From Candidatus Delongbacteria bacterium (GTDB lineage: Bacteria > UBA4055): 64,000 bases of DNA. The stretch spans positions 15,459-79,458 of the forward strand of contig JAFGUZ010000165.1 in the NCBI GenBank assembly GCA_016938275.1, in the 5' to 3' direction. The notes below the pieces were generated by a model that saw only the letters and a list, made by a program, of their open reading frames with translations, had not been told where the DNA came from and did not search any database. Made by a program: the position numbers and the translations under genes. This document shows positions 88 through 55,556 of the stretch, in pieces; positions within the stretch are counted from its first letter, which is position 1; every line of letters starts with the position of its first letter.

Positions 88-2520
88 TTGTCAGAAAATA
101 GTAGAATACGGATTGAAAAAAGATTAAAAATTTTAAGTTTAGCTGCTGATTTAGGTGTAAGTCAAACAGCAAAAATGTATGATATTGATCCAAAAACAAT
201 CAGAAATTGGAGAAGAAAGTTTGAAGATTCAGGCAGAAATGCTCTAGAAAATCAATCAAAAAAGCATATTGAACAAAAATACAAAATGCCAGAATCAGAA
301 TTCAATTTAATTAAAGAATGTTATCTAAATAATCCTAATCTTAGTGCAAGAGAAATTAAAGAAAATTTAAACCTTAAATATTCACTAAAAACAATATTGA
401 AAAAATTGAGTGAGATAAAATCTGATCCAAATGATTTAAAATACTCACTAGATGAGATAAGAATCCCACTACTCAATAATGATTTTTATTTAAGAATTAG
501 TGATTTGGAAAATAAAGGATTTAAAAATAAAATCTATAAATATTTGTTTATTTTAATAAATAGCTCAACAGGAGCAATATTTTGCTCTTTTGCATCAGAA
601 AAAACAGATTTAAATATTGCCTTATTTATCGACTACAGCGTATTTTGGCTCAAGAAAAATCAGTTCGAACCCAGTTTCCTAAATTTCCACCTAGATCCTT
701 CAATTTTGAAGACAAAAGGTTTTATCAAGAAGGTGGCAGAGAAAAATAAAATAGAGATAATGACTAGTAGATATAGTGAAGATATTTTTGATTTTGACAA
801 CCGAAAATATATTAAAATTTTCATAAACAATCTCAAATCAAAAGATATCAAAAACAATGACGATCTTCTTCTGTTTACACATTCACTTGTAGTGTCAAGT
901 AATACTCAGGTGTTTTCTGAAAGATTGGAAAAACATAATAGATCTGATATCTCATTTTTCGAAAAATTAGAGAATTTATCTTTTTCTTTTGTTCCAATTT
1001 ACATCGATAAACACTTCACTAGATTTAGTGCAATATTAAATAATACTCAACCTTGGGATGATTTTTTAACAGAATTCAATAATTTCACAGCAAAATCATC
1101 GACAATTTTCTATCAGACTTGTAATGATATTAGAAAAGTTGGTGATAATAAATCTGCATTGTTATTTTTTGGAGTAGCTGCAAAATGGCTACAGATTAGA
1201 AATCCAGAATTAAAGATATTAAGTCTTTTACAACAATGTATAATTTTATGGAATTTAGAACGTGATGAAGACGCTTGGAGACATCTTCAAAATGCCTACT
1301 CACAAGCAGTTAAATTAAAGCATATTCCTACTTTGATAAAATGCTATAATTTACTTTCTATGCATTTTTATAGAAAAAGTGATTTTGAAAGGGCATTTTT
1401 TTATAACAAAAAAGAGTTGGATCTAGCTAGAAAAATTAATGACACAAAGAATATCATGAGAACCACAATCAACATGGGTGTTCAATTACAAATAAAAGGT
1501 AGTTACAATACTGCGATTAAACTTTACAACAACCTTATTAATACATCGAATGATAATTACAATATTACCTTCAGTTACATCAATCTGTCTCTATTATATC
1601 TTAATATTGGAAAGCCTAGTCTTGCTTTAAAAAATTCATATTTAGTTCTTGAGTACAGTAATGATCATAATTATCACAATAATGATTATCATATCTATAA
1701 TTCAATCGGAAGGTCATATCTTGCACTGGATAGATTTCTCGAAGCTAAAATTAATTTTCAAAAAGCTGCCGAAATATCAATGGCATCAGGTTTATTCAGA
1801 GAATATTATGAATGTCAAAATTTTCTAGCTCATATTTCATGCGAAACGGGAAATTTCAAAAAGGCTTTAGAAATTCTACAAGAGATCCAAAATAATAAAA
1901 AGGAGCTAAATCTTGAATTTCTACTTGCTGAGCTAAATCTAATTAAATCTAAGATATTACTAAGAATAGGCAAAGATAAGAATTTCAAAGAATCAATAGA
2001 GGAAGCTAAAAATAAAGCAATAAATTTAAATGAGCTGGATACTCTTTTTGAGATAAAAATGTTGGAGGGATACTTTTATTTAACAAAAACAAAATTCAAT
2101 ATTGCTCATGAAATTTATAAAGAAGCAAAAGAGTTATGTCCAAAAAGATTTTCCGAAAAATTAGCTTCTGTCTATAAATATATAGCACTAGCTGATGCTC
2201 TAATTCATATCTCCAAGTCAGAAACTAGCCTTTCTACAATAATGGAAAAGATAGAAATCTTTTTTAATATGTATAATGTAAAAGATCGAAAGAGAACAAG
2301 TGCAGAATTTAACTTCAGAATTTGGTTTATTGTAAAGCTTCTCACTGAAAAAGGACTAATAACAGATATCAGTGAATCCTTATATAAGAAGTACCCTGCA
2401 GTTGATTTTTCATTGGATAAATTGAGGTTAAAAGCGATAAGGGGATATCAGAAATTATTTATGCAAACTCAAAAAATAATATACTCAGAAAGAATAGAAA
2501 TGTTAAAGTCATATAATTAA
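88..2520 (+). CDS. 810-aa protein: N-terminal transposase-type helix-turn-helix (IS630/IS3-like HTH) fused to a long TPR-like alpha-helical repeat region. No transposase catalytic domain.
   Basis: TTG start with AAGGGA RBS. The N-terminus LAADLGVSQTAKMYDIDPKTIRNWRRKFEDSG is a typical transposase HTH. Residues ~390-700 show TPR-like periodicity (YNLLSMHFYRKSDFERAFFYNKKELDLARK...). Confidence 0.6.
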   Translation: MSENSRIRIEKRLKILSLAADLGVSQTAKMYDIDPKTIRNWRRKFEDSGRNALENQSKKHIEQKYKMPESEFNLIKECYLNNPNLSAREIKENLNLKYSLKTILKKLSEIKSDPNDLKYSLDEIRIPLLNNDFYLRISDLENKGFKNKIYKYLFILINSSTGAIFCSFASEKTDLNIALFIDYSVFWLKKNQFEPSFLNFHLDPSILKTKGFIKKVAEKNKIEIMTSRYSEDIFDFDNRKYIKIFINNLKSKDIKNNDDLLLFTHSLVVSSNTQVFSERLEKHNRSDISFFEKLENLSFSFVPIYIDKHFTRFSAILNNTQPWDDFLTEFNNFTAKSSTIFYQTCNDIRKVGDNKSALLFFGVAAKWLQIRNPELKILSLLQQCIILWNLERDEDAWRHLQNAYSQAVKLKHIPTLIKCYNLLSMHFYRKSDFERAFFYNKKELDLARKINDTKNIMRTTINMGVQLQIKGSYNTAIKLYNNLINTSNDNYNITFSYINLSLLYLNIGKPSLALKNSYLVLEYSNDHNYHNNDYHIYNSIGRSYLALDRFLEAKINFQKAAEISMASGLFREYYECQNFLAHISCETGNFKKALEILQEIQNNKKELNLEFLLAELNLIKSKILLRIGKDKNFKESIEEAKNKAINLNELDTLFEIKMLEGYFYLTKTKFNIAHEIYKEAKELCPKRFSEKLASVYKYIALADALIHISKSETSLSTIMEKIEIFFNMYNVKDRKRTSAEFNFRIWFIVKLLTEKGLITDISESLYKKYPAVDFSLDKLRLKAIRGYQKLFMQTQKIIYSERIEMLKSYN

Positions 2521-2574: not shown

Positions 2575-2601
2575 AAAAAGGTGCCTTAAAGACACCTTTT
2601 A
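2575..2601. terminator. bidirectional rho-independent terminator hairpin (AAAAAGGTG-ccttaaaga-CACCTTTTT)
   Basis: A 9-bp perfect stem flanked by an A-run and a T-run. It lies between the convergent genes 88-2520 (+) and 2603-2974 (-). Confidence 0.6.
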
Positions 2602-2602
2602 T

Positions 2603-2974
2603 TTATCTAGCATACTTTTTACATAAGGCAATAAATTTGTCAATATCAACAGGTTTCTGTAAAACAGTTCTAACATTTAGATCATTTAGATCAAAATTTC
2701 TACCTGAAGCTGCAGCTATAGAAGAACTAAGAATAATTGGAATATCAAAATTTCCCTCTTTTAAAGCTTCAGCAAACTCAAAACCAGAATCTGCACTTTC
2801 CATCATAACATCAAGAATGATAAGATTTGGTGAATCATTTTTAGCAATTTTCAAACCCTCTTCGCTTGAAAGTGCTGATTTTATCTCAAAACCTTCTTTT
2901 TCAAGAATAAGAGTATAGGATTCGATAAAATCTATATCATCATCAACCAAAAGAACCATCTTTTTATCGGACAT
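2603..2974 (-). CDS. stand-alone CheY-like response regulator receiver domain
   Basis: MVLLVDDDIDF...LIILDVMM...IPIILSS...QKP carries the receiver acidic pocket, phospho-Asp and Ser/Lys motifs. The start was moved to the second ATG (MSDKK), which has a GGAGG RBS. The ORF-track start at 2986 has no RBS. Confidence 0.75.
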   Translation of the reverse strand: MSDKKMVLLVDDDIDFIESYTLILEKEGFEIKSALSSEEGLKIAKNDSPNLIILDVMMESADSGFEFAEALKEGNFDIPIILSSSIAAASGRNFDLNDLNVRTVLQKPVDIDKFIALCKKYAR

Positions 2975-3016
2975 TTTTTCCTCCATTGTTTATAATCAGA
3001 CATCTATGTCAAAATT

Positions 3017-3045
3017 ATTTTATCAACTTACATAAGTATAGTCAA
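3017..3045 (-). promoter_or_regulatory. sigma70-like promoter (TTGACT, 17-nt spacer, TAAAAT) for the receiver gene
   Basis: Read on the minus strand it gives TTGACTatacttatgtaagttgaTAAAAT. It lies between the hydB-proximal hairpin and the RR start. Confidence 0.35.
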
Positions 3046-3065
3046 TATAATTTTTTAGAATTATT

Positions 3066-3084
3066 GCGGCAGGAAATCTGCCGC
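3066..3084 (-). terminator. stem-loop GCGGCAG-gaaat-CTGCCGC immediately after the hydB stop (weak terminator or mRNA-stabilising hairpin; no U-tract on the minus strand)
   Basis: 7-bp GC-rich perfect stem. On the minus strand the downstream sequence is A-rich rather than U-rich. Confidence 0.3.
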
Positions 3085-3090
3085 CTATTC

Positions 3091-4821
3091 CTATTTCATA
3101 AGATCTTCAAATTCTGATCTGAATTTTTTCACCATATTCTCAATAGGCACACAGAAAGCCTCACCTGTAGGACAGATAGTAACACCTTTAACATTTCTAC
3201 AAATTGTAAGGATATTCTCAAGATCCTCTGGTTTACCATTTCCATCAAGAATATTAGTTAAAATTCTCTTAATTGATTGAGATCCATGACGACAAGGTGC
3301 ACATCTTCCACAAGATTCATGAGCATAGAAATCTATCGTTCTTTTTGCAATTTTTGGTATAGATGTCTCTTTGTTGATAACCATTACCCCACCAGACCCA
3401 AGTGCAGTACCATGTTTAATACATGAATCATAATCCATCTTCAGATTTTGAAGCTCGTTAGCAGTAAGAATAGGTACAGATAAGCCACCAACTATAGCCG
3501 CTTTCAATTCCCCTTTTACACCACCTGCAGCTTCAATAAGCTCATCAAATGGAATACCCATTGGATATTCGTATACGCCAGGTTTGTTTACATGACCACT
3601 AATTCCAAAAATTTTAAATCCATTATTATTTGACGGTCCAAATGTTCTGTAAGCCTCAGCTCCATTTTCAACAATGTAAGGAACACTTGCCAAAGTTTCA
3701 ACATTGTTAACAATAGTAGGGCATCCATATAGACCTTCAACAGCAGGGAATGGAGGTTTTATTCTAGGCTCACCACGCTTACCTTCAATAGATTCGATCA
3801 AAGCAGTTTCTTCACCGCAAACGTAAGCACCAGCTCCCCTATGAACAATAATATCGAAATTATTAAGTTTTCCATCTCTTCTGGCTTCTTCAATAGCATT
3901 TTCTAAAATCTGTGCGATCCACTCAAATTCACCACGAATATAGATAAAACCAAGTTGCGATTTTAAAGCGTGAGCTGAAATCACCATACCTTCAATTAGA
4001 AGATGTGGATCGTATTCCATAATTTGTCTGTCTTTGAAAGTTCCAGGTTCACCTTCGTCAGCATTACAGATTAGGTATACTGGTTTTTCATTATTTTTTG
4101 GTAAGAATCCCCATTTAACACCAGTAGGAAAACCAGCTCCCCCCCTGCCTCTAAGCATGGATTTTTTTACTTCAGAAATAATATCAGCTGGATTCATTTC
4201 TAAAGCTTTTACTAGAGCTGAATAGCCACCATTTTTCTTGTAAGTATCAATAGATACAGAATTTTCTACACCACGATTTTTCAAAAGGATATTACATACT
4301 GTAGCCCAATTATATTCATCCTGTTTCGGAGGCATCACACCTTCTCTTAATGATTTTATCAGTGCAACTGTTTTTTCAGGAGTCATATTTTCATAATATG
4401 TGTCGTTAACTTGAATTACTGGACATGAACCACACGAACCTAAATCTTCAACAGCTTTCAATGTAAACATTTTATCGCTAGTCGTTTGACCAACTTCAAT
4501 TCCAAGTTCATCTTTCACAGTTTTTAAAATTTCACACGCACCCATAAGTGAGGCGGGGATGTTTGTATCAACTTGAATAAAATATTTACCAACTTCTTTA
4601 GTATTGTACATTGAATAATAAGTCAACACACCGTAAGCAGCGGATTCAGGAACTCCAAGAAGTTCTGCAACTTCTCTGGTAAGGTCTCTAGTGATGTAGT
4701 TATTATTATCTTTCTGAACCATCATAAGAGCAGGCATAATAGCAGACTCTTTCTTAGGATATCTTCCAGCTAGATCCAGAATTTTTGATTTTATATTATC
4801 AGAAATCATTATATCTCCCAT
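3091..4821 (-). CDS. NuoF-like NADH-binding flavoprotein (hydrogenase diaphorase subunit, HydB/HndC type) with an N-terminal NuoE/thioredoxin-like domain
   Basis: NADH/FMN motif GGAGFPTGVKWGF. C-terminal 4Fe-4S motif CGRCAPC...C. The N-terminal ~150 aa are NuoE-like but retain only CGSC (CxxC), with no Cx4C pair. Confidence 0.85.
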   Translation of the reverse strand: MGDIMISDNIKSKILDLAGRYPKKESAIMPALMMVQKDNNNYITRDLTREVAELLGVPESAAYGVLTYYSMYNTKEVGKYFIQVDTNIPASLMGACEILKTVKDELGIEVGQTTSDKMFTLKAVEDLGSCGSCPVIQVNDTYYENMTPEKTVALIKSLREGVMPPKQDEYNWATVCNILLKNRGVENSVSIDTYKKNGGYSALVKALEMNPADIISEVKKSMLRGRGGAGFPTGVKWGFLPKNNEKPVYLICNADEGEPGTFKDRQIMEYDPHLLIEGMVISAHALKSQLGFIYIRGEFEWIAQILENAIEEARRDGKLNNFDIIVHRGAGAYVCGEETALIESIEGKRGEPRIKPPFPAVEGLYGCPTIVNNVETLASVPYIVENGAEAYRTFGPSNNNGFKIFGISGHVNKPGVYEYPMGIPFDELIEAAGGVKGELKAAIVGGLSVPILTANELQNLKMDYDSCIKHGTALGSGGVMVINKETSIPKIAKRTIDFYAHESCGRCAPCRHGSQSIKRILTNILDGNGKPEDLENILTICRNVKGVTICPTGEAFCVPIENMVKKFRSEFEDLMK

Positions 4822-4845
4822 TTTTTAATTCTTTGAATTTGATAA

Positions 4846-6630
4846 TTAGTGTTTATGTGTAACCTCTTTTACAGCATTACCAAAAGCTTTTGATCTTTCA
4901 AAGTAATTTGTGTGAAGTAATTTATGAGCAAGTTCTGAATTTGGTTTTTCTAGATAGTCTTGATAAATTTTCTGAACCATTGGATTTTCATGAGAGAATC
5001 TTATAGAAAGAGCTTTATCTTCATTATAAAGACCTTCACCACGAACTTCTCTATCAACCATTCCACAACCGAAAGGCTGACCACCACCTCCAACACATCC
5101 ACCTGGACATGCCATTACTTCAATGAAATGGAATTCAGATTTACCAGTTTCAGCAATTTGAGCTCTAACTTTATCCATTAATTTTCTAGCATTTCCAAGA
5201 CCGTTTGCAACAGCTACTCTAACAGGGAAAGGAAGTCCAGGAGCATCAATAGTTGCTTCTTTAATACCTTCTAATCCTCTAACAACTTTGATATCTGGAT
5301 CAGGAAGATTATTGTTAGTTAAAAGGAAGTATGCAGATCTTACGGCTGCTTCCATAACACCACCTGTTGCACCAAAAATTGTAGCAGCACCAGTATAAGC
5401 ACCCATCAATCTGTCAGCTTCTTCTTCAGGTAAATTTTTATAGTCTAGACCAGCTTCTTTAACCATTCTAACAAACTCTCTAGTAGTAAGAACATAATCA
5501 ACATCCTGATATCCAGAATCATTCATTTCAGGTCTTCTAGCTTCAAACTTTTTAGCAGTACAAGGCATTAGAGATACAGAAACTATATCTTTAGGATCAA
5601 TATTATTTTCTTTAGCATAATATGTTTTTACCAAAGCACCAAACATTTGCTGTGGAGATTTACAAGTAGAGACATTTTTTGCAAGATCTGGGAAGAATGT
5701 CTCCATAAATTTAATCCATCCAGGAGAACAGGAAGTAACAAGTGGTAATGTGCCACCATTAACTACTCTAGAAATAAGCTCAGAACCCTCTTCCATAATT
5801 GTAAGATCGGCTGTAAAATTTGTATCAAACACTCTGTCAAAACCAAGTCTTCTTAATGCTGCATACATTTTACCAGGAGTAGCAAGACCTTGCTCCATGC
5901 CAAATTCTTCAGCTAAAGCAACTCTGATTGCAGGAGCTTCTTGAATGACAACATGTTTTTTAGGATCAAGTAAAGCTGTCCATACTTCATCAATTTCACT
6001 TTTTTCAGTTAAAGCACCAGTTGGACAATAAACTGTACACTGTCCACAATTGATACATGGACTATTAGCCATTCCTTCATCAAAAGCTGTTGTTGCATAT
6101 GTTTTATAGCCTCTTTCAGCTTTGGTAAGAGCATTTACAGTCTGAATGGACGAACATACTTCTATACATCTTCCACAATTTATACATTTATTAGGATCTC
6201 TAATTATCGATGGGCTGGAATCGTCAACAGGAAGTCTTTCCATGCTCACAGGAACTCTTCTCATCGTTACGCTAAGATTATTTGCTAGATCTTCAAGTTC
6301 ACATTTTCCATGAGCAAGACAAGTAGGACATTCAACATGATGATCAGCCAAAGTCATCTCTAGAATAAGCTTTCTTGTTTCTCTAATACGCAATGAATTT
6401 GTTGTAACATCCATACCCTCTCTAACTGGAGTTGTACAAGATCTTTTTGGGCTATTTTCACCTTCTATATCAACAACGCATATACCACAACTTCCAGATG
6501 GTTTTAAATCTGGGTGATAACAAAGACTCGGAATTTTTATTCCAACCTTTTTTGCTGCTTCTAAAATTGTAGTGTTTTCTGGTACTTTAACTTCAAGACC
6601 GTCAATTACCAGGTTTACCATTTTTTGCAT
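4846..6630 (-). CDS. hydA: [FeFe]-hydrogenase catalytic subunit (M3-type: 2Fe-2S ferredoxin, His-ligated 4Fe-4S, 2x 4Fe-4S, H-cluster domain) with an atypical L1 motif
   Basis: N-terminal 2Fe-2S cysteines; HHVECPTCLAHGKC; CINCGRCIEVC; CINCGQCTVYCP. H-cluster motifs are L2 MPCTAKKFE and L3 EVMACPGGCVGGGGQP. L1 reads TSCSPGW (Ser where the second Cys is expected). AAGGAG RBS. Confidence 0.85.
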   Translation of the reverse strand: MQKMVNLVIDGLEVKVPENTTILEAAKKVGIKIPSLCYHPDLKPSGSCGICVVDIEGENSPKRSCTTPVREGMDVTTNSLRIRETRKLILEMTLADHHVECPTCLAHGKCELEDLANNLSVTMRRVPVSMERLPVDDSSPSIIRDPNKCINCGRCIEVCSSIQTVNALTKAERGYKTYATTAFDEGMANSPCINCGQCTVYCPTGALTEKSEIDEVWTALLDPKKHVVIQEAPAIRVALAEEFGMEQGLATPGKMYAALRRLGFDRVFDTNFTADLTIMEEGSELISRVVNGGTLPLVTSCSPGWIKFMETFFPDLAKNVSTCKSPQQMFGALVKTYYAKENNIDPKDIVSVSLMPCTAKKFEARRPEMNDSGYQDVDYVLTTREFVRMVKEAGLDYKNLPEEEADRLMGAYTGAATIFGATGGVMEAAVRSAYFLLTNNNLPDPDIKVVRGLEGIKEATIDAPGLPFPVRVAVANGLGNARKLMDKVRAQIAETGKSEFHFIEVMACPGGCVGGGGQPFGCGMVDREVRGEGLYNEDKALSIRFSHENPMVQKIYQDYLEKPNSELAHKLLHTNYFERSKAFGNAVKEVTHKH

Positions 6631-7121
6631 TTAACTCTCCTTAATATTTGAACTATAATTACTTTTGCCTCTGGACGCAATACGACTTATTTGCAGAAAC
6701 CGTAATCACAACCAGTGCTAGCAATATTCAATAGTATATGATATTTGTCAATTATTTTTTTTACATTTTTTTTGTTACAAAATTCACAATCGACTTTAAC
6801 ACGCCCACATAATGTATATTATTTTATTTATACAACTACTTAATGGGAAATAATTTATTCCTACAATATTTGAAAAAACGAATAAATCTACGTAATTTCT
6901 TTACGTTGGCAACAATAATGTATTTGTTACTTAAATAACAACTTTATGATTATAGTAATCATTCTTTGATTTTCCCCGATACATAAAAGAGATATTTAGA
7001 TCTCACCGTATATAGTATTGCGTATACAATTAATTATATAATGCCCACATTCAGAGATATCAAATAAAAAAAAAAGTAATTTAAGAAGTGATCAAACTGT
7101 CTAACCTATTATAAGAAGGAG

Positions 7122-9413
7122 CTAAATCTCCTGTCTGTCTCTCTTTGTTGCTAACTGAATCTCATTTAAAAGAATCTTACCTTCCAGAGGCTTATGTAAA
7201 ATTTTAGCAACACCCAACTCTTCAGCCTTTTTCATATCAAAAGAGCTTGTAAATCCTGTTATTATTATTACAGGAATATTATCACCTGCAGCTTGTATTA
7301 TATCAAGACCTGTATAATTTGGCATACTCATATCGGAAATAATAATATCATAAGATCTTACATTTCTCTTTACCTCATCAATAGCTTTTTTGCTATCTGT
7401 AAAACAGGTCACCTGATGACCTACCATCTCCAATAGTTCTGAAACATTCTCAACTATTTTCTTTTCATCGTCAACCAAAAGAATTCTCTTAGGTTCAATT
7501 ACTCCACTTTCAAGACTTGAAAAGTCTGAAATAGGTTTTATTGCAGCCTCTTCAGCTATAGGAAGATATATCTTAAAAGTTGTCCCTTTATCCTCTTCTG
7601 AAACAACTTCAATATGTCCATCATAAGATTTTACTATTCCATGAACCATCGACAATCCAAGACCTGTTCCATCTTTACCTTTTGTTGTAAAATATGGATC
7701 AAAAATTCTTGTTAGATTTTCTTTTGCGATACCTTTTCCATTATCTTCAATGGACAGTAGAACATAATTGCTTTTTTTGAGGATTAAATGAAGGTGACTG
7801 TTGAGATTATTCCAATTAACATCAACTAATGATATTGAAAGCTCCCCCTGAATATCCTTCATTGCATAAATTGAATTTGTACAGAGATTCATTACAATCT
7901 GTTGAATTTCAGAAGGATCAATATAGGCAATACTATTACTATCGATATTCCGCCTGATTATTATATTTTTTGGCAATGTTGATTTTAACAGTTTTATAGT
8001 CTCTTTTACATAGATAGAAATCTGACAGGAATTCATATTATTTTCATTTTTATGACTGAAAGTAAGAATTCTTTTAACCAGTTTTTTCATGCGGTCTGCA
8101 GCTTCATAAATATCTTGAATTTTGTTTCTTACTTTGCCCTCACCTAAAGTTCTAAGCAAAATATATGAGCTACCGTATATTATAGTTAAAATATTGTTTA
8201 TATCATGGGCAATTCCACCGGCCAACGTTCCAATAGCTTCCATTTTTTGAGAATGCTTCAATTGTTCTTCCAGTAAAGATTCCTTTGTTACATCTTTTTT
8301 TACTGCAACATAGTTAGATATTTCCTTATCAACATTAAAAAGAGGATAAATAATTGCGTCTTCCTTATAAATCATACCATCTTTTTTCTTATTGAATATC
8401 GTTCCTTTCCAAAAACTTCCAGCAGAAATGGTACTCCAAATATCAGCGTAAAATTCATGTGAATGTCTTCCACTCTTAGTAAGATTCGACTTTCTTCCAA
8501 CTACTTCATCTCTTTTAAACCCTGTAACATCAAGATATCTCTGATTTACATATTCAATAAACCCATTCTTATCGCAAATCATAACTGAGTGGAGTGAATT
8601 TTCAACTACTGACGCAAGCTTAGATATCTCACTTTGATCGTTAATGTTCTTTGTTATATCAAAGGCTATTCCACCAATCAAAGGTTGGTTATTTATTCTA
8701 TTTATCAAAAACTTTTGTATCTTTAGCCTTTTAATTTCCCCATCAAAAACAAGCTTTTTATCAAATTCAACAAAACCTTTTTCCAATACAATCTTATCTT
8801 CATTTGTCAATTCTTCAGCAAAACTCTTTTCAAATATTTCATCAGTATGCTTTCCAGCATACTCACTTAGCTTAAACAACTCTTTCATATTATTATTAAC
8901 AAAGAGGTATCTTGAGTCAACAGTCTTGATAAAAACTGAAACAGATACATAATTCATAAACTGTGTAAAGATTCTTTCTAGCAGCTCACCATCTCCATAT
9001 ATATCTTTCTTTAAATCCCTGAATTGAATCTCCAAAGATTTATCTCGTTTATATTTTTCTATCGATTTATTAATTATTGAATCGATTTCTTGCTGAGAAT
9101 CGTTAATGTCAATTACATCAGAAACCCCATTTCTATAAGCTTTGATAATTGTTTTATTGGAACAATTATTGGAAAATCCTAAAACAGGGAACTCAAAAGA
9201 TTTTTCATGAAAAAAAGTTTCTTCTGTATTCAAACTATCATCAGTTAGAGACAATATTACCAAATCAGGTTTAAAATTATCAATTAAATCAAATCCAGTT
9301 TTGTGATCCAAAGCTCTAATTACATTATAGCCCAAATTATTAAGACGTTGAGCAAGCTTCTTTGTTGAATCAAGCGATGGATCAATTATCACAATTTTTT
9401 TAACTCTACACAT
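7122..9413 (-). CDS. hybrid sensor histidine kinase: N-terminal receiver-like domain, PAS domains, HisKA/HATPase_c, C-terminal receiver
   Basis: HisKA H-box AHDINNILTII. HATPase N/G boxes (DNGKGIAKENL, GTGLGLSMV). C-terminal RILLVDDEKK...IISDMSMP receiver. The N-terminus IVIIDPSLD...DLVILSL is receiver-like. Confidence 0.8.
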   Translation of the reverse strand: MCRVKKIVIIDPSLDSTKKLAQRLNNLGYNVIRALDHKTGFDLIDNFKPDLVILSLTDDSLNTEETFFHEKSFEFPVLGFSNNCSNKTIIKAYRNGVSDVIDINDSQQEIDSIINKSIEKYKRDKSLEIQFRDLKKDIYGDGELLERIFTQFMNYVSVSVFIKTVDSRYLFVNNNMKELFKLSEYAGKHTDEIFEKSFAEELTNEDKIVLEKGFVEFDKKLVFDGEIKRLKIQKFLINRINNQPLIGGIAFDITKNINDQSEISKLASVVENSLHSVMICDKNGFIEYVNQRYLDVTGFKRDEVVGRKSNLTKSGRHSHEFYADIWSTISAGSFWKGTIFNKKKDGMIYKEDAIIYPLFNVDKEISNYVAVKKDVTKESLLEEQLKHSQKMEAIGTLAGGIAHDINNILTIIYGSSYILLRTLGEGKVRNKIQDIYEAADRMKKLVKRILTFSHKNENNMNSCQISIYVKETIKLLKSTLPKNIIIRRNIDSNSIAYIDPSEIQQIVMNLCTNSIYAMKDIQGELSISLVDVNWNNLNSHLHLILKKSNYVLLSIEDNGKGIAKENLTRIFDPYFTTKGKDGTGLGLSMVHGIVKSYDGHIEVVSEEDKGTTFKIYLPIAEEAAIKPISDFSSLESGVIEPKRILLVDDEKKIVENVSELLEMVGHQVTCFTDSKKAIDEVKRNVRSYDIIISDMSMPNYTGLDIIQAAGDNIPVIIITGFTSSFDMKKAEELGVAKILHKPLEGKILLNEIQLATKRDRQEI

Positions 9414-14653: not shown

Positions 14654-15607
14654 ATGAAAAAAACAATAATCTTACTTTTAACTTTTATTCTGACACTTTT
14701 CGGTAGTGGAAAATATGCTGGTGAATTTATAACAGGTTCTATTGATGCTAGAAGTTTAGCTTTGGGAAACAATATCCTTACATCTTTTTCTACTGCCTCA
14801 TCCGCCTACTTCAATCCTGCATTTCTACCAGAAATGACGAAAAGCAGTATTACTTTAAATCACAGTGAAAGATTTGACGGTTGGGTCAATCAGGAATACG
14901 CTGCATATACATCAAAAATGAATGATCTTTCTTTTGGTTTATATGTTATTCGTTTGGGAGTTGACGATGTTCCTGTAACTGCTATCAATGATGACGAAAA
15001 CGACCCATCTCTTGATAATAGACCCTATATAGTAAAAGAAGTGAGTGACAACGAAATAGCAGTGGGTCTCTCCTTAGGTAAAAGATATAACGAAGTTTTG
15101 AATTATGGAGTTTCTGCTAAAATTCTATATAAAGGTTTTGAGGAGGAATCAGCCTTTGGACTTGGCTTTGATCTGTCTATGCTTTATAAAATGAATGACG
15201 ATCTTAATTTTGCAGCAAAACTACAAGATGTAACTACATCAGGATTATTTTGGACAACGGGAGAGAACGAGTTTATTAAACCTTCTCTTTATGGTGGAGC
15301 AGAATACAATTTCTTTTGGGAATATCTTGATTCAAGCATTAAGCTTATTTCTGGTATGCGCGTTGGATCTGAAGGATACAATGAAAATGCTGCAATTTCT
15401 TTTTCAGAATTTGATGTAACTTTCAATGGTGGTGCAGAACTATTATTAAATGAATTCATCACATTAAGAGGTGGTTCTGAAATGGAAAGATGGTCTGTGG
15501 GAGCTGGTATAAATTTATACGGTGTCAGTTTAGATTATGCTTTCAAACCTGATGATGAACTTGGAGATACTCATAAAGCATCCATTAGTTATGGATGGGG
15601 AGACTAA
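14654..15607 (+). CDS. secreted outer-membrane beta-barrel protein (FadL/PorV/PorQ-like)
   Basis: Signal peptide. ARSLALGNN...AYFNPAFL N-terminal motif typical of the FadL/PorV superfamily. Alternating amphipathic beta-strands. Confidence 0.35.
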   Translation: MKKTIILLLTFILTLFGSGKYAGEFITGSIDARSLALGNNILTSFSTASSAYFNPAFLPEMTKSSITLNHSERFDGWVNQEYAAYTSKMNDLSFGLYVIRLGVDDVPVTAINDDENDPSLDNRPYIVKEVSDNEIAVGLSLGKRYNEVLNYGVSAKILYKGFEEESAFGLGFDLSMLYKMNDDLNFAAKLQDVTTSGLFWTTGENEFIKPSLYGGAEYNFFWEYLDSSIKLISGMRVGSEGYNENAAISFSEFDVTFNGGAELLLNEFITLRGGSEMERWSVGAGINLYGVSLDYAFKPDDELGDTHKASISYGWGD

Positions 15608-21035: not shown

Positions 21036-21497
21036 TTAATATACCTCATAAATCATCTTACATATTTTTTCTAACCATATTTTATCTGTTTCATCGAAAC
21101 TACTTCCCTTATCGCTATCAACATCCAAAACAGCAACGAGTGAATTGTCTCTATCAAAAACAGGAACTACAATTTCAGATTTTGATCTTGAATCACAGGC
21201 GATATGCCCTGGGAATTTCTCAACATCATCAACGATTACGGTTTCCCTATCAATGACAGCTGACCAACAAACACCGTGAGGTTTTGCCAAAACCTGACAT
21301 GCCAAAGAACCTTGATATGGTCCGACGATAAGTTTTTCATCCTTAATAAAATAAAATCCAGTCCAAAAATAATAAGAAAATTTATGATGTAAAACAGCAA
21401 TAATTGTACTCATTCTTGGAAGAGGATCTTTTGTCTTTGTTAATAAGGATTCCAATTGGTTGTATATCCGCTCATATTTACTATTTTTATTGTCCAT
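21036..21497 (-). CDS. msrC: GAF-domain free methionine-(R)-sulfoxide reductase (fRMsr/MsrC-like)
   Basis: GFYF...GPYQGSLACQ...HGVCWSAV...FPGHIACDS...EIVVPV conserved fRMsr signature. Confidence 0.7.
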   Translation of the reverse strand: MDNKNSKYERIYNQLESLLTKTKDPLPRMSTIIAVLHHKFSYYFWTGFYFIKDEKLIVGPYQGSLACQVLAKPHGVCWSAVIDRETVIVDDVEKFPGHIACDSRSKSEIVVPVFDRDNSLVAVLDVDSDKGSSFDETDKIWLEKICKMIYEVY

Positions 21498-24310: not shown

Positions 24311-25912
24311 TCAATCCCAGAATGTCCAACGAATTCCCCATATTTCATCATATCCCATCATATTATGACCAGCAACAGTTTGATAATGATAATTTGGGTT
24401 AAAACTATAATCTTCTGTAATTGAATTATAAGTATTCCTATATCCATTGGATATCGAATAATAGGCTTCAAATGTTTTAATTATTGCAGATATTTTAAGC
24501 CCAAAATTATTTTCTATTTGATTGGTTCCATCAGCCAAATACTCAGAATACCTGTGTAATAAACTTATGGAGATATCTAGCTCTTCATCGAAAAAATTAT
24601 CAAACCATGACAATCTGCTATTTATTGAATAATCTGTATGATCTAATGATAAAACCTCTCCCAAACTTTTGTAGTAACTTGAATTTATACTGAAATGTTT
24701 AAACAAATCAATATTTAAATCAAAAGTGAGATCCTGGTAAAGATCTCTGTTATACAATTCTCTATAATCGTATGAAAATTCATATTCTGTTTTTACGGAT
24801 ACAGAAAAGAAATCAAACTCATTACGAAAATCTGCTTGAAATCGTTTTGATAGAAGAGATACCCTTCTATACTTTTCATCGGAAAAACTAATTGAAACAG
24901 CTTCACCGAGAATAAAATATCCTAGCTTTTTACTCAATAACAATTCGCCAGCAGTATAAAATTTATCATTTTCCAACAATCCTGCTATCAAACGTTCTCT
25001 AACATTAAACTTTAAAAATTCGCTTTCGTTTGAACCTATGATAGAAACATCCATTAAATCGTCAGACAAACCTTTTGAATTTGAAAAAAATAAACCTAAT
25101 GATCTTTTTCTATCTTCTAAACTACTAATGATGAGTTGTCCAGTTTCTTCATTATAGCTATCACCTTTAAACTCGCCATACTCAGCTCGTATTCCACCAA
25201 ATATATTATATTTAGCTAGAATATAATTATATGTGTATTCACCATTATACCGAGTATCTACCTCTTTAGTTGAATCTTTGGCAAAATTGAATCTTTGGCT
25301 CCTAAAATATCCAAACTTTAAATCCTGATTTATTGTTTCTCCTTCTCTCCTCAAGCTAAAATTATAATTCTGCCTCAGATAAGGATAATTATAAAAATCG
25401 TCATCTTCTCTATTATCCATATAATCCGTAATATTTCCATAAATTTTGAATTTATAGTTTTTACTAAATCTTTGTGCTAAATATATATCAAGATCTCTAT
25501 GATTTAAATACGCATCACGATATGAAACTTCACTGCATACATCTCTTGAATTTAACTTCTTTGTGAAAATTTTTATAGTTGAACCTGAAGAACTCAAAGG
25601 ATCATCACAAATACTAATGCTATCAATTATTGATAAAGAAAAATCCTCTAGCTTCATTTCATTATAAGTACCAATTGCTAGGTTATCTACCACAATGGAG
25701 ATAGTTTTTTCAACTGCTCCATTTTTATAAATTCTAATATCTTGCCCAGTTTGCTTGTAGGTTTTCAAATGATACCCAGGAATTGTTTTTAAAATATCAT
25801 AGACAGTCCTTGCAGGGTAAAATCTAAACTCATTTTTCCCAAAACTATATGAAGAACCTTCTAAAAAATTTAAACAAGCTATTATTAACAGTGTCAGAAA
25901 TTTGAAATACAT
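24311..25912 (-). CDS. secreted outer-membrane beta-barrel protein with a TonB-receptor-plug-like N-terminal region
   Basis: Signal peptide; plug-like ILKTIPGYHL...DIRIYKNG...IVVDNLAIG; beta-rich remainder. Too short for a canonical 22-strand TBDR. Confidence 0.35.
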   Translation of the reverse strand: MYFKFLTLLIIACLNFLEGSSYSFGKNEFRFYPARTVYDILKTIPGYHLKTYKQTGQDIRIYKNGAVEKTISIVVDNLAIGTYNEMKLEDFSLSIIDSISICDDPLSSSGSTIKIFTKKLNSRDVCSEVSYRDAYLNHRDLDIYLAQRFSKNYKFKIYGNITDYMDNREDDDFYNYPYLRQNYNFSLRREGETINQDLKFGYFRSQRFNFAKDSTKEVDTRYNGEYTYNYILAKYNIFGGIRAEYGEFKGDSYNEETGQLIISSLEDRKRSLGLFFSNSKGLSDDLMDVSIIGSNESEFLKFNVRERLIAGLLENDKFYTAGELLLSKKLGYFILGEAVSISFSDEKYRRVSLLSKRFQADFRNEFDFFSVSVKTEYEFSYDYRELYNRDLYQDLTFDLNIDLFKHFSINSSYYKSLGEVLSLDHTDYSINSRLSWFDNFFDEELDISISLLHRYSEYLADGTNQIENNFGLKISAIIKTFEAYYSISNGYRNTYNSITEDYSFNPNYHYQTVAGHNMMGYDEIWGIRWTFWD

Positions 25913-32052: not shown

Positions 32053-34296
32053 TCAAATTTTAAAATAACTAACAATTTCTTTTAGCTTTTCGGCTTGAGA
32101 TGACAGTTCTTTAGCTGCATCAGCTGTTTCTTCTGAGCTAGCAGAATTAGTTTGAGTTATTTTTGAAACCTGAACAAGTCCTGTATTAGCTTGTTCAATT
32201 GCTCTGGCTTGCTCTTGAGATGAAACTGCAATTTCATTTACTAAATCAACTGCTTTGGTTATACTTTTTTCAATCTCTTTTAATGATTGGACTGATTTTT
32301 TTGTTATTGATGAACCTGTTTCTACTCTTTTAACAGAATCTTCGATCAATTCTGTGGTTTCTTTTGCGGCTTCTGCCGATCTTTGAGCAAGGTTTCTTAC
32401 TTCATCTGCTACAACTGCAAATCCTTTACCATGAATTCCAGCCCTTGCAGCCTCAACTGCTGCATTCAAAGCTAAAAGATTGGTTTGAAAAGCAATATCA
32501 TCAATTACTTTAATAATTTTTTTTATCTCTCCAGAACTAATTGCAATACCATGAACAGCCTTTTCCAGATCATTCATATTTTGATTTCCTTGTAAAGCTA
32601 ATTTTTTTGCATCTGATGAAATATTTGCTGCAAGATTTGCGTTCTCAGCATTTAATCTAGTTTGAGAACCAATTTCAAGCATAGTTGAAGTCAATTCCTC
32701 AATTGAGCTTGACTGCTCTGTAGAGCCAAGTGATAGAGAACTGGAAGCCTCAGATAATTGAGTAGACCCATGATCAATATCCTCTGCTGCAAAAGTAATT
32801 TCTTCGATGGTCAAATATAGTTTTTTGATTGTGTCTTCCAATGAGACAGATATTTTATTCATCATTTCATAATAGATTTTCATATCTTCGTTAAATGAAT
32901 CAGGTTGATATTGTATAGTTAAATCACCTTCAGACAATTTTTTTAAAAAGTATGATATTTGATCAACTTCTTTTACAAGGTATTCAGTGATCTGCTTACT
33001 TTTTTCTTGCTCAGCCAAAGCAATTTTTTTGGCATCTTCTGCAATTTTAAGCACTGAATTATCTGTAGATTCATCTTTAATCAGATTAAATGAACCACAT
33101 ACATTGTTTTCCAAATCAATAATAGGATAGGTTGCAATCGAATAAACAATCCTATTCCCTTTTTTCTCGATATTAAATGTGTCTTTTTTAGTAGTATTTC
33201 TTTCAACAGTTTCAATAAAGAGATCCCTTTTTAAATTGAGACTTGTTTGCTCCATTATTGAATCTACGTTCCCAAAAGTTTGTTCAAACAGATCATTCCT
33301 GTATAATATTTTTCCATCTTTATCATTGATAAATATAAGAACTGGCATTTTATCAAAATAAATTGTGTATGTTTTAATAATTTGATTGATGCCTTGTACG
33401 ATACTTATGTTCAAACCATGCCTTGATTTCTCAGATGTATCAATATCAACAGAACTTTTTAAGCTTCCTCGAACAATATTAGTTTTAATTTTCATTGTGT
33501 TTTCAGTAATAAGAGCTAAGTTTTCTTTGATTAAATTTAGATTGTCTGATAATTCTCCTAATTCATCGTTACTTACCTTTGAAAGGCTTATGTCATACTT
33601 ACCAGAAGCAATCTGTTTAGCAACATAACTAATTTCTTTTATAGGGTTTATGAAGTATTTATAAGAAAAAGAAACCATTGTTAAAATAACAATTAAGAAG
33701 ATTGTAAAAATTACAGTAATTCTAAAAAAAAGATCACTGTGCAGATCTTTTTCAAAATTATTTAGAAGAAGATCTAAATCATCAGAGTATATACCTGTAG
33801 CAAGGATCATATCAGATTTTGGTATTTTTTTAAACCATACATGTTTTTTTACAGGTTCATCTTTTCCACTCTTATTCCAATAATAGTCGATATAACCTTC
33901 GTCTTGTAATTTCGACATATCAACTAATTCTTTAAAGAATTTCTTACCTTTTACATCTTCATAATCAGATAAGTCTTTGTTTAGAAGGGATTTTACATAT
34001 GGATGATAGAGGCAATAATATTTTGAATTCATAACATAAAAATAGCCTTCAGGATCATATTTCATAAAATCTAGAGATTTAAAAAATTTTTCTTGGGAAC
34101 GTGTCGCAATGTAATCACCAATAGTCACATCTACGAGTGATTTCAATTGATTTAATCGTTCTTTTGTTAGTAATTCTTTTTGATCATTCAATTTAGAGCT
34201 ATAAGTTGAAAAATCAAATATTAATATGCCTCCTGTTATAGAGACTGCAGTTATCAATAAAACCAACAAGATTTTTCTATAAATGTCCAATTTCAT
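32053..34296 (-). CDS. methyl-accepting chemotaxis protein with a periplasmic double-Cache-like sensor, HAMP, PAS-like segment and MCP signalling domain
   Basis: Highly conserved MCP core IAFQTNLLALNAAVEAARAGIHGKGFAVVADEVRNLAQRSA. Two TM helices flank a ~180-aa periplasmic domain. The start was set at MKLDIYRK (GGAGAA RBS), not the ORF-track start. Confidence 0.8.
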   Translation of the reverse strand: MKLDIYRKILLVLLITAVSITGGILIFDFSTYSSKLNDQKELLTKERLNQLKSLVDVTIGDYIATRSQEKFFKSLDFMKYDPEGYFYVMNSKYYCLYHPYVKSLLNKDLSDYEDVKGKKFFKELVDMSKLQDEGYIDYYWNKSGKDEPVKKHVWFKKIPKSDMILATGIYSDDLDLLLNNFEKDLHSDLFFRITVIFTIFLIVILTMVSFSYKYFINPIKEISYVAKQIASGKYDISLSKVSNDELGELSDNLNLIKENLALITENTMKIKTNIVRGSLKSSVDIDTSEKSRHGLNISIVQGINQIIKTYTIYFDKMPVLIFINDKDGKILYRNDLFEQTFGNVDSIMEQTSLNLKRDLFIETVERNTTKKDTFNIEKKGNRIVYSIATYPIIDLENNVCGSFNLIKDESTDNSVLKIAEDAKKIALAEQEKSKQITEYLVKEVDQISYFLKKLSEGDLTIQYQPDSFNEDMKIYYEMMNKISVSLEDTIKKLYLTIEEITFAAEDIDHGSTQLSEASSSLSLGSTEQSSSIEELTSTMLEIGSQTRLNAENANLAANISSDAKKLALQGNQNMNDLEKAVHGIAISSGEIKKIIKVIDDIAFQTNLLALNAAVEAARAGIHGKGFAVVADEVRNLAQRSAEAAKETTELIEDSVKRVETGSSITKKSVQSLKEIEKSITKAVDLVNEIAVSSQEQARAIEQANTGLVQVSKITQTNSASSEETADAAKELSSQAEKLKEIVSYFKI

Positions 34297-34454
34297 GAGT
34301 TCTCCAAAAATAGTATTATGTAATATAAGATAATGCTTTATTTGTGTGATAAACAATAATGTTGTAGAAATCTTTTAAATTCATGAAAACTATCATTTGG
34401 TATTTCATTATTTTTTTTATATGTTCATGTTCGCTATTAACAAAGAGGATTAGA

Positions 34455-45994: not shown

Positions 45995-46945
45995 ATGATG
46001 AACAATTTCAAACTGTTTATTATACTGGCTTTTATAACACTTTTTTCCTGTACTAAAGACAAGCAGATCTATAAAAGATCTACTGAGAATAAAAGAAAAG
46101 AGGAAATTAGACAATTGAATACTTCCGATTCACTGGCGACTGATCTTCTGAAGATAATTGATGAATCTGGAGTTGATGAATGCTATCCTTTCTTTGTAGA
46201 GAAATCAAATACGATTTATTTTCAAAGAAAGTTAAGAGACGGTTTTTGGACTATAGCTAAGAAAAAATTAGATAAAGATACTGTTATAGTTCAAATCTAT
46301 GACGACAATTCCAATTGTACGAATCCTGTAGTCGATAATGATGGTAGGTACATCGCTTACCTTTCTGACAGGTATGGTATAACAGACAAAGACGGTTTCA
46401 AATACAGGGATGTTATTCTGTATGATTCTGATCTAAAGATTTCAAAAGTATTAAGTGATAGAATTTCTGATAACTATTCAGTTAAAATTAATGGTGCTAA
46501 AATTTATTTTATCTCTAATACAAAGGATAAACTAAAACTAGCTTACGACAAAAATGAAAAACTAACTTTATTTTGTTATAATTTAGAAACCAAATCATTG
46601 GAAGAAATTGTTTTAAATTATAGTTTTTTTGATTATTATCCATCAGGAAATTTCGTCTGTTTTATTGACAATGAGTTTAAGTTGAAATATGGCACGGTAG
46701 ATGATATAAAAACTTTTGATATTGATGGATATTGTGGAGACCCGATTGTTTCTGGTGATAAAATTTTTATATCACATAGGAACGAAAATATAATGGATTT
46801 CTATTATTTAGATATTAATACAGGCACAAAAACTAAAATGGAATATTTTGGTGGTTTCGGTGGATATTTCCCTGTAAAAGACAGATTGTTTTTCCATAAA
46901 AAAAGTGGAAATGATTTTGGAATTTATTCCAATTTAATAAAATAG
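45995..46945 (+). CDS. lipoprotein with TolB/PD40-like beta-propeller repeats
   Basis: Lipobox LFSC after the signal peptide; repeated DNDGRYIAYLSDR-type PD40-like blades. Confidence 0.45.
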   Translation: MMNNFKLFIILAFITLFSCTKDKQIYKRSTENKRKEEIRQLNTSDSLATDLLKIIDESGVDECYPFFVEKSNTIYFQRKLRDGFWTIAKKKLDKDTVIVQIYDDNSNCTNPVVDNDGRYIAYLSDRYGITDKDGFKYRDVILYDSDLKISKVLSDRISDNYSVKINGAKIYFISNTKDKLKLAYDKNEKLTLFCYNLETKSLEEIVLNYSFFDYYPSGNFVCFIDNEFKLKYGTVDDIKTFDIDGYCGDPIVSGDKIFISHRNENIMDFYYLDINTGTKTKMEYFGGFGGYFPVKDRLFFHKKSGNDFGIYSNLIK

Positions 46946-55300: not shown

Positions 55301-55556
55301 TGTTTTCTAAAATATAATCGCTTTTACCATAATGATTCTCAAAGATAGATCTAATCTCTTCATGCACTGTCTCATACAATCTTCTAGCTGACTGATTATG
55401 TTTAAACTTTATAAGAAAAAGATCTGTCACGTACACAGAACCAACAGCTAAAATCAAAATTGCAGAAAAACTGATCATCAATCTAAGAAACAATGACCTA
55501 CTTAGATCAGACTTATTGTTATCACTCATATTATTACTCATTTTGATATATATCAA
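52302..55556 (-). CDS. large membrane sensor histidine kinase (two TM helices, periplasmic-type sensor, multiple PAS domains, HisKA/HATPase_c, ~250-aa C-terminal extension)
   Basis: H-box VSHEIRTPLNAVLGY. N/G boxes (NAIKFTDHG, GGTGLGLSITKRL). PAS repeats between residues ~350-650. Confidence 0.8.
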   Translation of the reverse strand: MIYIKMSNNMSDNNKSDLSRSLFLRLMISFSAILILAVGSVYVTDLFLIKFKHNQSARRLYETVHEEIRSIFENHYGKSDYILENSIKQILIEKKLSLIAIFDSNGNKIFSIFEKPEDEIINKDSLVFKNESLESLVSFHKGSFISFRSPIYLNKGKFILLVSISETQISMLKNSIWSGLIIFILAITLALLLVYIILVRFFMPIKEILMSISDFFPDSFKVDSEDFTSIKKNMDSLIKSVTENKTEFERVNHILKGIKNNISVGLILVDEKNYIEDKICETVNSYWLNFDSDLIHFTKIFDYFITSNENNFEIEIGQKYFQVAVSQLEEFISKSYIFIIGDISELKYKEFKLIENESKLKALMNAVPDIIFVMDKDGNYKDVITNHNELLISDPNNLINKNLSEVLPDGIALKYKKMITNSLNSEKVKSYEYSLEINGELKWFEGRFTPVVLSEKNEERLCLVLVIDITKRKVAEDKLTELNLDLENQIDLRTKQLAQSEKNIKEIIDYAANLILRFDSNGKLIYINPIGVELLNLTIVNTSYTSFEKLFEASNGLEKFGDRLDGLFKDRNSQTSFEAQIKTRSGERKWILWNVRIISSEDSKVELLFIGTDITQNKDLENRLVKAKNEAEKSKAEAEKASLTKSEFIATVSHEIRTPLNAVLGYTNILMESDIDEKYKNYLFNIHKGSKDLLCTLNNILDLSKIDAGKVNIIEDSVNITNLIEDVKTIFYAIAKEKGLLLQSYVSPNTPQSIISDITILRQILVNLVGNAIKFTDHGSVIIKVSANRVRFRIYNIFISVVDTGVGITDEFKDQIFEPFSQGESNLSRKYGGTGLGLSITKRLVNLLGGMIEVKSQVNQGSEFNVSLFNMRKITVDNENIDKSIDQDRKLKGAVFFESPTMNELISYKFSNYNVRLEFHIDEMAFEEFIDSTNVSFMIINFDYIQNSFRDGIRIIRLFKHIKEVKIIAISDLKNIDESHNELFDLIVNRDVFEEKIIEIVQTLKLTKKNNLEKKLNLNIKQLNLLIKAEKSKNISDYRAFSESLGSDDDLVLKDYSIKLEKAIEDFELSVLNDLLMIIKESVL

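Follow-up and report, generated by a model that had tools for sequence, protein, structure and literature searches.

A single-domain receiver accompanying fused NuoE-NuoF genes, and the predicted NADH-dependent [FeFe]-hydrogenase locus of a Delongbacteria genome in which it lies

What is a pair of [FeFe]-hydrogenase genes doing between a hybrid sensor kinase and a stand-alone receiver? The question is raised by a 64-kb stretch of DNA (here called the window) from a low-GC (~31%) Delongbacteria metagenome-assembled genome (MAG), in which four genes follow one another on the minus strand: the kinase (7122..9413, 763 aa), hydA (4846..6630, 594 aa), hydB (3091..4821, 576 aa from the longest open reading frame, ORF) and the receiver gene (2603..2974, 123 aa, with a GGAGG ribosome-binding site, RBS, in front). 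All four ORFs of the initial annotation were confirmed; the leader that it placed between the kinase gene and hydA is also real, although 491 bp long (6631..7121) rather than 490 bp. That annotation had read the locus as a module for sensing H2 or redox state, or as redox-regulated, rather than as a plain bifurcating HydABC. Its observations stand with the corrections given below, and its interpretation is partly supported: the element conserved with the hydrogenase is the receiver rather than the kinase, and the hydrogenase itself is predicted to be an ordinary catalytic enzyme.

The receiver protein is a single Response_reg domain (63 bits) with no output domain. It has the catalytic residues D11, D12 and D13, the phospho-acceptor D55, S85 and K107, and the motif LDVMMESADSG (nt 2783-2815, minus strand). 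Orthologues with 63-65% identity lie 16-52 nt 3' of hydB in three other lineages (L092, L096 and L097; L numbers designate related loci), the outer flanks of which are unrelated, and the HydB proteins of which form one clade with that of the window. The comparison of gene neighborhoods suggested in the initial annotation gave a divided answer: the receiver is conserved beside hydB, but the kinase is absent from all related loci, and the proposed signaling link to hydAB is supported for the former and not for the latter.

How general is the association? The 78 loci seeded with HydB alone contain 69 fused nuoEF genes after removal of redundancy, and 13 of these have a single-domain receiver beside them, for which P <= 2e-10 even if 1% per side is assumed. 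Where a receiver is present, the enzyme partnered with nuoEF is usually a selenocysteine (Sec) formate dehydrogenase (FDH), and otherwise HydA. Neighborhoods seeded with the receiver contained fused nuoEF in six cases out of six. Three of the six hold the orthologues just described; the other three hold more distant homologues of the receiver (42-49% identity), one as the last gene of a nuoEF-hoxU-hoxY-hoxH [NiFe] operon, one inside a cluster of FDH, kinase and PP2C genes with fused nuoEF adjoining, and one divergent from an fdhA-nuoEF pair. No adjacent receiver was detected at the ~60 unfused non-bifurcating HydB genes in the collected loci.

These proteins can be described as a nuoEF-associated receiver subfamily, defined here as proteins of 120-132 aa, consisting of a receiver domain only, encoded beside or within a fused nuoEF operon, and carrying the motifs (I/V)DDD, LD(V/I)MM(E)xxD(S/A/E)G, IPxxxxSSI and (Q/N/E)KP. 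The window receiver has all four motifs and follows hydB. Across the subfamily D11, D12, D55, K107 and P108 are invariant, and the loop LD(V/I)MMExxDSG is shared. The conserved unit is fused nuoEF plus receiver; the kinases nearby vary. The receiver is a real conserved partner of a class of NADH-linked H2/formate enzymes, and apparently an undescribed one: within the searchable literature, which is incomplete, no description of a receiver linked to NADH-linked hydrogenase or FDH operons was found, and a search on CheY-like genes in hydrogenase clusters gave nothing relevant. A profile search of 1.84 billion representative proteins for natural receiver-NuoEF fusions was uninformative, the top matches all being multi-receiver proteins with summed scores.

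The collected loci with fused nuoEF show several further arrangements. The gene occurs mostly with an FDH alpha subunit (L122, L124, L131, L137, L151, L155, L172, L180, L182), the ORF of which is interrupted by an in-frame UGA, presumably encoding Sec, leaving ~353 aa on the N-terminal side and ~530-540 aa on the C-terminal side. A FocA-type formate channel follows the receiver in L147. In L178 (1884-7372; also in L179), a Hox-type NAD-linked [NiFe] operon runs from fused nuoEF through hoxU-like, hoxY and hoxH genes and a 160-aa ORF to a receiver of the subfamily, with a second fused nuoEF and a rubrerythrin gene just upstream of the operon in L178. L126 (8450-9813) has three tandem single-domain receiver genes directly upstream of fused nuoEF-fdhA, and a further receiver and an 810-aa kinase 3 kb downstream. 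In L180 (5095-9655), a Cache kinase, a subfamily receiver, an Fe-S/PAS protein (PF04060) and a SpoIIE PP2C phosphatase stand in a row beside FDH and nuoEF, resembling a partner-switch set placed beside the same receiver family.

What kind of enzyme does the receiver accompany in the window? The initial annotation described hydB as NuoF-like and noted the lack of a separate NuoE/HydC gene. Both statements are correct as far as they go, but NuoF makes up only part of the protein, and HydC is not missing: judged by domain content, it forms the N-terminal part of HydB, as in HydAB of Syntrophus aciditrophicus. The NuoE/HydC-like domain (PF01257, E 9e-43) covers aa 18-158 (nt 4348-4770, minus strand) and the NuoF flavoprotein part aa 183-573 (nt 3103-4275, minus strand), with PF01512, SLBB and PF10589 spanning aa 218-573. 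The likely start of hydB is the ATG at 4809, after an RBS-like GGGAGA, which gives a product of 572 aa, equal in length to the annotated protein of the MAG.

Published criteria for a non-bifurcating HydB (PMC7311640) are T or S at position 232 and K, S or A at 234 (Thermotoga maritima HydB numbering), Tyr near the flavin mononucleotide (FMN) site (367) and no GGPSG; bifurcating BfuB/HydB has A/E232, M234, F367, GGPSG and the B2-B5 clusters. The window HydB has T and K in EPGTFKDR (nt 4027-4050, minus strand), Tyr in GAGAYVCGE (nt 3811-3837, minus strand) and VGGLSV in its SLBB region, with GGPSG absent; it ends at the NuoF N3 cluster region, without a C-terminal ferredoxin domain or a later CxxCxxCxxxC, and its nearest solved relatives are complex-I NuoF chains, not bifurcating HydB. 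All of its signatures are of the non-bifurcating type, and the earlier opinion that this is not a plain bifurcating HydABC is borne out. The same T/K, Tyr and GGPSG characters split the NuoF-type proteins of the collected loci into 109 of the non-bifurcating and 53 of the bifurcating type, and the fused proteins all fall among the former except for one 1,100-aa outlier.

The fused NuoE-like part has a peculiarity of its own. Read from an alignment to NDUFV2, in which the canonical pattern is CX4C...CX3C, three of the four cysteine ligands of the N1a [2Fe-2S] cluster are replaced by D85, A90 and D126; C130 is kept, and C133 is extra. In loci L001-L177, a NuoE domain of this D/A type is found in 73 of 79 fused proteins, and canonical ligands in 107 of 109 unfused ones, so far as sequence can tell making loss of the N1a ligands a family-wide trait of fused NuoE-NuoF. 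Because the fused HydC-like domain lacks canonical [2Fe-2S] ligands, cofactor counts made from domain names may be too high for such proteins.

HydA scores 837.1 bits over aa 5-579 against the NCBIfam model NF040763, 'NADH-dependent [FeFe] hydrogenase, group A6' (cut-off 765). Its Pfam domains give an M3 architecture (2Fe-2S, NuoG-type 4Fe-4S, 2x4Fe-4S, H-cluster domain and a small-subunit-like tail), and no PAS domain is among them. On the minus strand, L2 (MPCTAKKFE, nt 5542-5568) and L3 (EVMACPGGCVGGGGQP, nt 5074-5121) are canonical, and the proton-path residues E279, E282, R286, S319 and C299 (CpI numbering) are conserved in the alignment. L1 reads TSCSPGW (aa 299-305, nt 5716-5736, minus strand), compared with a textbook form of TSCCPxW, and the initial annotation took this as one sign of a sensing or redox-regulated module. 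That argument fails: TSCSPGW is found in all 121 full-length HydA relatives from the fetched loci (L001-L091) and in 7Q4V chain A, part of a solved HydABC structure and the top Protein Data Bank (PDB) match of HydA, and it is therefore a clade signature that says nothing about sensing. It is normal for this HydA clade, which corrects an annotation shortcut. The position of Cys300 (CpI numbering), a ligand of the [4Fe-4S]H cluster, is Ser across the whole clade, and likewise in 7Q4V chain A. A literature search on TSCSP gave nothing relevant except a remark on TSCSPGW in Melainabacteria. Taken together, the sequences of the two subunits indicate that hydAB encodes an [FeFe] enzyme of the dimeric HydAB type, one that is catalytic, depends on NADH and does not bifurcate electrons.

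The upstream kinase was annotated as REC-PAS-HK-REC. It is indeed a hybrid PAS kinase with an intact C-terminal receiver, but the N-terminal receiver is degenerate and there are two PAS domains, the full order being degenerate receiver, PAS, FAD-sensor-like PAS (FAD, flavin adenine dinucleotide), HisKA, HATPase and intact receiver. The pseudo-receiver (aa 7-102, nt 9108..9395) reaches 21.1 bits against a Response_reg cut-off of 30.2; its phospho-acceptor Asp has become Ser in LVILSL (nt 9246-9263), and the acidic pair and Lys are also gone. The C-terminal receiver (nt 7158..7484, 84.6 bits) has all of the catalytic residues, with the Asp in IISDMSMP, and the HisKA/DHp region (nt 8046..8231) has the H-box GGIAHDINNIL with His403; the kinase core (H-box IAHDINN plus HATPase) is present, as are the phosphorylatable residues of the stand-alone receiver. 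All of these features, like the kinase gene itself, are on the minus strand, as is PAS2 (aa 266-377, nt 8283..8618), for which the nearest solved structures are the FAD PAS domains of MmoS, Aer and NifL (PDB 3EWK, E 1.4e-25; 8DIK, 1.2e-11; 2GJ3, 1.6e-11). The reference flavin-pocket residues are Aer H53, R57, M69, W70, N85 and R115 (PMC9668731). In the PAS2 pocket W326 and N342 are conserved, and Aer R57, R115 and M69 are replaced by K, K and I. A redox-sensing role for the kinase is plausible from these resemblances, and to this extent the redox aspect of the initial annotation survives, but the kinase is without an orthologue.

None was found among 5.8 billion proteins, the best non-self match having 38-42% identity over two thirds of the length, and the non-self matches cover the generic PAS-kinase-receiver core. 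The closest relatives of HydB (70-74% identity) are encoded in hydA-hydB-hydG-hydE-hydF loci, and 80 loci seeded with HydA mostly have hydS, a small HATPase gene, hydC, hydB and hydA. Hybrid kinases with an AHDFNN-type H-box do occur within 5 kb of nuoEF-receiver pairs in L092, L147 and L161; the kinases near other pairs differ in architecture (HisKA-only in L137, with Cache in L180). The link between kinase and hydAB is one of adjacency in one lineage of a signaling-rich genome, and the kinase is probably incidental or lineage-specific. In L005 (1-6061), from another Delongbacteria-like genome, the genes 5' of hydA on the same strand encode a PAS kinase, a REC-PatA_N protein, a ParA-like protein, a second REC protein and an HD-GYP protein; these signaling genes differ from those of the window and occupy the same position relative to hydA.

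Could hydAB be under transcriptional control instead, or as well? The hydA leader contains a palindrome, TTGTGAATTTTGTAACAA (6772..6789, minus strand), 141 nt upstream of the hydA ATG, which is a candidate operator of Rex or CRP type. It has two mismatches to the strict Rex consensus TTGTGAA-W4-TTCACAA (PMC2883068) and one to a degenerate version, of which it is the sole site with at most one mismatch in the window (0.27 expected); its core also fits the CRP-type TGTGA-N6-TCACA. A weaker second palindrome, TTGTTATTTAAGTAACAA, lies at 6924-6941 (minus strand) in the same leader. L005 has a perfect site 61 nt before hydA, and L001 a one-mismatch site upstream of hydA. With a Bacillus subtilis Rex sequence as the probe, rex was found beside 14 related hydrogenase loci. 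Control of hydAB through such an operator may exist, and is offered as a lead rather than a result. As a candidate for a conventional operator, the palindrome counts against the interpretation in the initial annotation. Among the related loci, L023-L066 (Syntrophorhabdaceae and others) have a common operon of a HydS-like sensor (~450 aa), a HATPase-only protein (~180 aa), hydC, a non-bifurcating-type hydB (~527 aa) and hydA; a second, bifurcating-type cluster with a ~1,020-aa NuoF often follows it, and rex lies within 10 kb in 14 of the loci.

The reading that we favor, as probable although well short of assured, is that the locus combines a known kind of NADH-dependent HydAB with a conserved phospho-receiver accessory, which would couple kinase input to an NADH-linked H2/formate module. 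Electrons would pass from NADH to FMN, to the [4Fe-4S] cluster of NuoF and then through the Fe-S clusters of HydA as far as the H-cluster, and ferredoxin would not be used by HydAB. The receiver would act through phosphorylation-dependent protein contacts, since its phosphorylation residues are all kept and it has no output domain. Its target may be the NADH-dehydrogenase module itself, or it may serve as a shuttle or sink in a circuit controlling that module; either way, it would tie the exchange between NADH and H2 or formate to kinase input. The candidate source of that input closest to the receiver gene here is the hybrid kinase encoded upstream, with its MmoS/Aer/NifL-like PAS domain, a putative pairing, and transcription of hydAB may also answer to the Rex/CRP-type operator in the leader. 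A bolder version, which is speculative and which we think rather unlikely, would make the receiver a subunit that regulates the fused NuoE-NuoF diaphorase according to its own phosphorylation, perhaps docking on the N1a-less NuoE-like domain; a two-component kinase would then act through it, directly on the protein, to gate the transfer of electrons between NADH and H2 or formate. It would also make this a device common to [FeFe]-hydrogenases, NAD-linked FDHs and [NiFe] Hox-type enzymes in many phyla.

Such a device would be of some consequence. Non-bifurcating NADH-dependent hydrogenases and FDHs set the limit of H2 and formate output by fermenters and syntrophs, and the same enzymes reverse when H2 or formate builds up; to our knowledge there is apparently no account of how the activity of these NADH-linked enzymes is switched. 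That a receiver accompanies the NADH-input module these enzymes share, irrespective of the catalytic subunit, points to a single means of control for all of them.

Several observations weigh against the favored reading. The case for joining receiver and enzyme is entirely one of gene neighborhood; only about one fused nuoEF gene in five has the receiver, in the closest sister clade its place is taken by hydGEF, and no column of the HydB alignment tracks receiver adjacency. The hydB-receiver gap in the window is 116 nt and contains a hairpin and a promoter-like site, so that co-transcription is less certain here than in the relatives. As for the kinase, no related locus has it upstream of hydA, not even those with hydA, hydB and receiver; no histidine phosphotransfer (Hpt) domain was found in it or in the scanned window ORFs of at least 145 aa; the flavin-pocket His (Aer H53) is Ser in PAS2; and the genome is rich in signaling genes (the window also encodes a second PAS kinase, a methyl-accepting chemotaxis protein, MCP, and a GAF protein), making a kinase beside any given operon likelier by chance. 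The palindrome by itself is not significant, at least one match occurring in 24% of shuffles; it is weak (three mismatches) in L096 and L003 and absent in L097, and no rex gene was found in the window or in L001-L005.

Which other explanations would fit? One is close to the initial annotation: a dedicated redox two-component module, in which the flavin-PAS kinase senses redox state and phosphorylates the receiver, and the pair specifically controls hydAB. Kinase and receiver do flank hydAB on the same strand, PAS2 is most like FAD sensor domains, the receiver is tied to hydB across lineages, and H-boxes of a similar kind occur in kinases close to other nuoEF-receiver pairs; yet a kinase without orthologues, missing 5' of hydA even from the three loci with the same hydA-hydB-receiver order, is a poor candidate for a dedicated partner, a hybrid kinase normally needs the Hpt protein that was not found, and the differing kinases of L137 and L180 and the density of signaling genes here add to the difficulty. 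We regard this explanation as possible but doubtful. Another would keep the receiver purely within a signaling circuit, as a phosphate sink, a shuttle or a connector comparable to Spo0F, DivK or CpdR that never touches the enzyme and is co-encoded for dosage with the operon. A single-domain protein with full phospho-chemistry and no output domain would suit such a role, kinases are often within a few kb, and the lack of any HydB residue tracking the receiver is what one would expect; on the other hand, it leaves unexplained why the link is to fused nuoEF whatever the partner (HydA, FdhA or [NiFe]), and why no receiver was detected beside unfused HydB operons. It too deserves only tentative credence.

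Are the signaling genes simply neighbors, with the kinase and receiver in unrelated circuits and hydAB controlled by transcription only, for example by Rex? The non-conservation of the kinase, the Rex/CRP-like sites in the leader, in L001 and in L005, the rex genes beside related loci and the known control of hydrogenase-related genes by Rex (PMC6391272) are all in favor, but the conservation statistics make chance very unlikely for the receiver, and coincidence for the locus as a whole seems to us unlikely. The two remaining alternatives concern the enzyme, and both are highly improbable. That HydA is a sensory, HydS-like hydrogenase and the locus an H2-sensing module, as the initial annotation had it in part, was suggested only by the non-textbook L1 and the neighboring signaling genes; it is already contradicted by the data, L1 being the clade norm, L2, L3 and the proton path being intact, HydA falling in a catalytic NCBIfam family and lacking PAS, and the HydS-like proteins of related loci being of 400-460 aa with the motifs SPCxAKVTE and ExQAC. 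That it is a conventional bifurcating HydABC with HydC encoded elsewhere could draw on the top PDB matches of HydA, which are bifurcating HydA1 chains, but the HydC-like domain is present in fused form, and HydB has neither the A/M, F and GGPSG signatures nor the extra Fe-S domains and is nearer to complex-I NuoF than to bifurcating HydB.

The intergenic regions of the locus, all on the minus strand, add some detail. The GC-rich hairpin proposed after hydB is real (3066..3084, 3' of the stop codon; 7-bp stem, 5-nt loop, -16.5 kcal/mol, z -3.98), lacks a U-tract, and was not among the terminators called in the terminator scan. The sigma70-like promoter assigned to the receiver is present as a 10/12 match (3017..3045, TTGACT-17-(TG)TAAAAT) but is weak, and a comparable 10/12 match lies 5' of hydA (6723..6751, TTGACA-17-AATATT); both carry little weight, because such matches are common in this AT-rich DNA (49 in the window, vs 34 +/- 6 in shuffles). 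A terminator-like hairpin with a U-run (2576..2600, -12.6 kcal/mol, z -5.1) lies 3' of the receiver gene, between it and a convergent gene. The leader at 6631-7121 has no Rfam match and only tiny unconserved ORFs, and an alignment with the long hydA leaders of L096 and L097 gave no conserved blocks.

The convergent gene (88-2520, plus strand, TTG start) encodes a protein of 810 aa that has TPR repeats and, at its N-terminus, an HTH resembling those of transposases (HTH_28/HTH_23). The initial annotation was right that there is no DNA-binding output domain within the four genes; this neighbor was considered as a DNA-binding partner and set aside, no homologue having been found near any related locus. 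Farther off are the second PAS kinase (52302-55556, minus strand, 1,084 aa), rpoN (sigma-54; 48205-49629, plus strand), a Cache-HAMP chemoreceptor, the MCP (32053-34356, minus strand), and the small GAF protein (21036-21497, minus strand). The maturase genes hydG, hydE and hydF were sought in the window and are absent, and must therefore be elsewhere in the genome. No tRNA gene and no Rfam family at threshold were found in the whole window, and at E <= 1e-5 Pfam gave no match for the ORFs at 14654-15607 (317 aa), 24311-25912 (533 aa) and 45995-46945 (316 aa).

How does the locus compare with known systems? The leader palindrome resembles the Rex operator, a perfect copy of which lies upstream of hydA in L005, and departs from it by two mismatches and a core that also fits CRP. 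PAS2 is likened to the MmoS, Aer and NifL domains by its counterparts of W70 and N85 and conservative replacements of R57, R115 and M69, and set apart by Ser for H53. Among hydrogenases, a close match, compared by published description, is S. aciditrophicus HydAB (SYN_01369/01370), a dimeric, ferredoxin-independent, NADH-dependent enzyme of which the beta subunit is 'a fusion of S. wolfei Hyd1BC' (Losey et al., 2020, PMC7311640). The two share the hydA-hydB gene pair, the HydC/NuoE-like region (aa 15-152 there, 18-158 here), the T/K, Tyr and no-GGPSG signatures and an M3-type HydA of ~590 aa. They differ in that the NuoE-like part is counted there, by domain analysis, as a [2Fe-2S] site, while that of the window lacks three of the four N1a cysteines; a search of the text of that paper for 'two-component' and 'histidine kinase' found no receiver or kinase. 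Hyd1ABC of Syntrophomonas wolfei, also non-bifurcating and NADH-dependent (PMC5626996), has the same enzyme logic and HydB signatures, but its HydC is a separate subunit, of the unfused kind in which NuoE is nearly always canonical. The unfused hydC-hydB-hydA form is that of most HydA-seeded relatives. Bifurcating HydABC complexes (T. maritima, 7P5H; 7Q4V, which we take to be from Acetobacterium woodii; 8A6T, presumably from Thermoanaerobacter kivui) have the same HydA fold and cofactor motifs; their HydB, in contrast, has the A/M, F and GGPSG signatures and extra Fe-S domains absent here, and needs ferredoxin.

The regulatory parallels are looser. Sensory HydS (group C) hydrogenases likewise have signal-transduction genes beside a hydrogenase, and many of the related loci have genes for HydS and a small HATPase protein ahead of hydC-hydB-hydA, but there the sensor is a degenerate HydA paralogue, whereas in the window HydA is predicted to be catalytic, HydS is absent, and the conserved element is a stand-alone receiver. 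HoxJ/HoxA and HupUV/HupT/HupR exert two-component control over [NiFe]-hydrogenases through NtrC-type DNA-binding regulators; the likeness is that of a two-component system dedicated to hydrogenase genes, and the difference is that the window receiver is without an output domain and goes together with the gene for the diaphorase. It is similar in form to CheY, Spo0F, DivK and CpdR, single-domain regulators that act via protein contacts or a phosphorelay, with which it shares the receiver-only architecture and the intact D-D-D-S/T-K residues. Its best PDB matches reach only 30-44 bits, and it is distinguished from these regulators by a beta3-alpha3 loop, DVMMExxDSG, that has no Pro and one extra residue.

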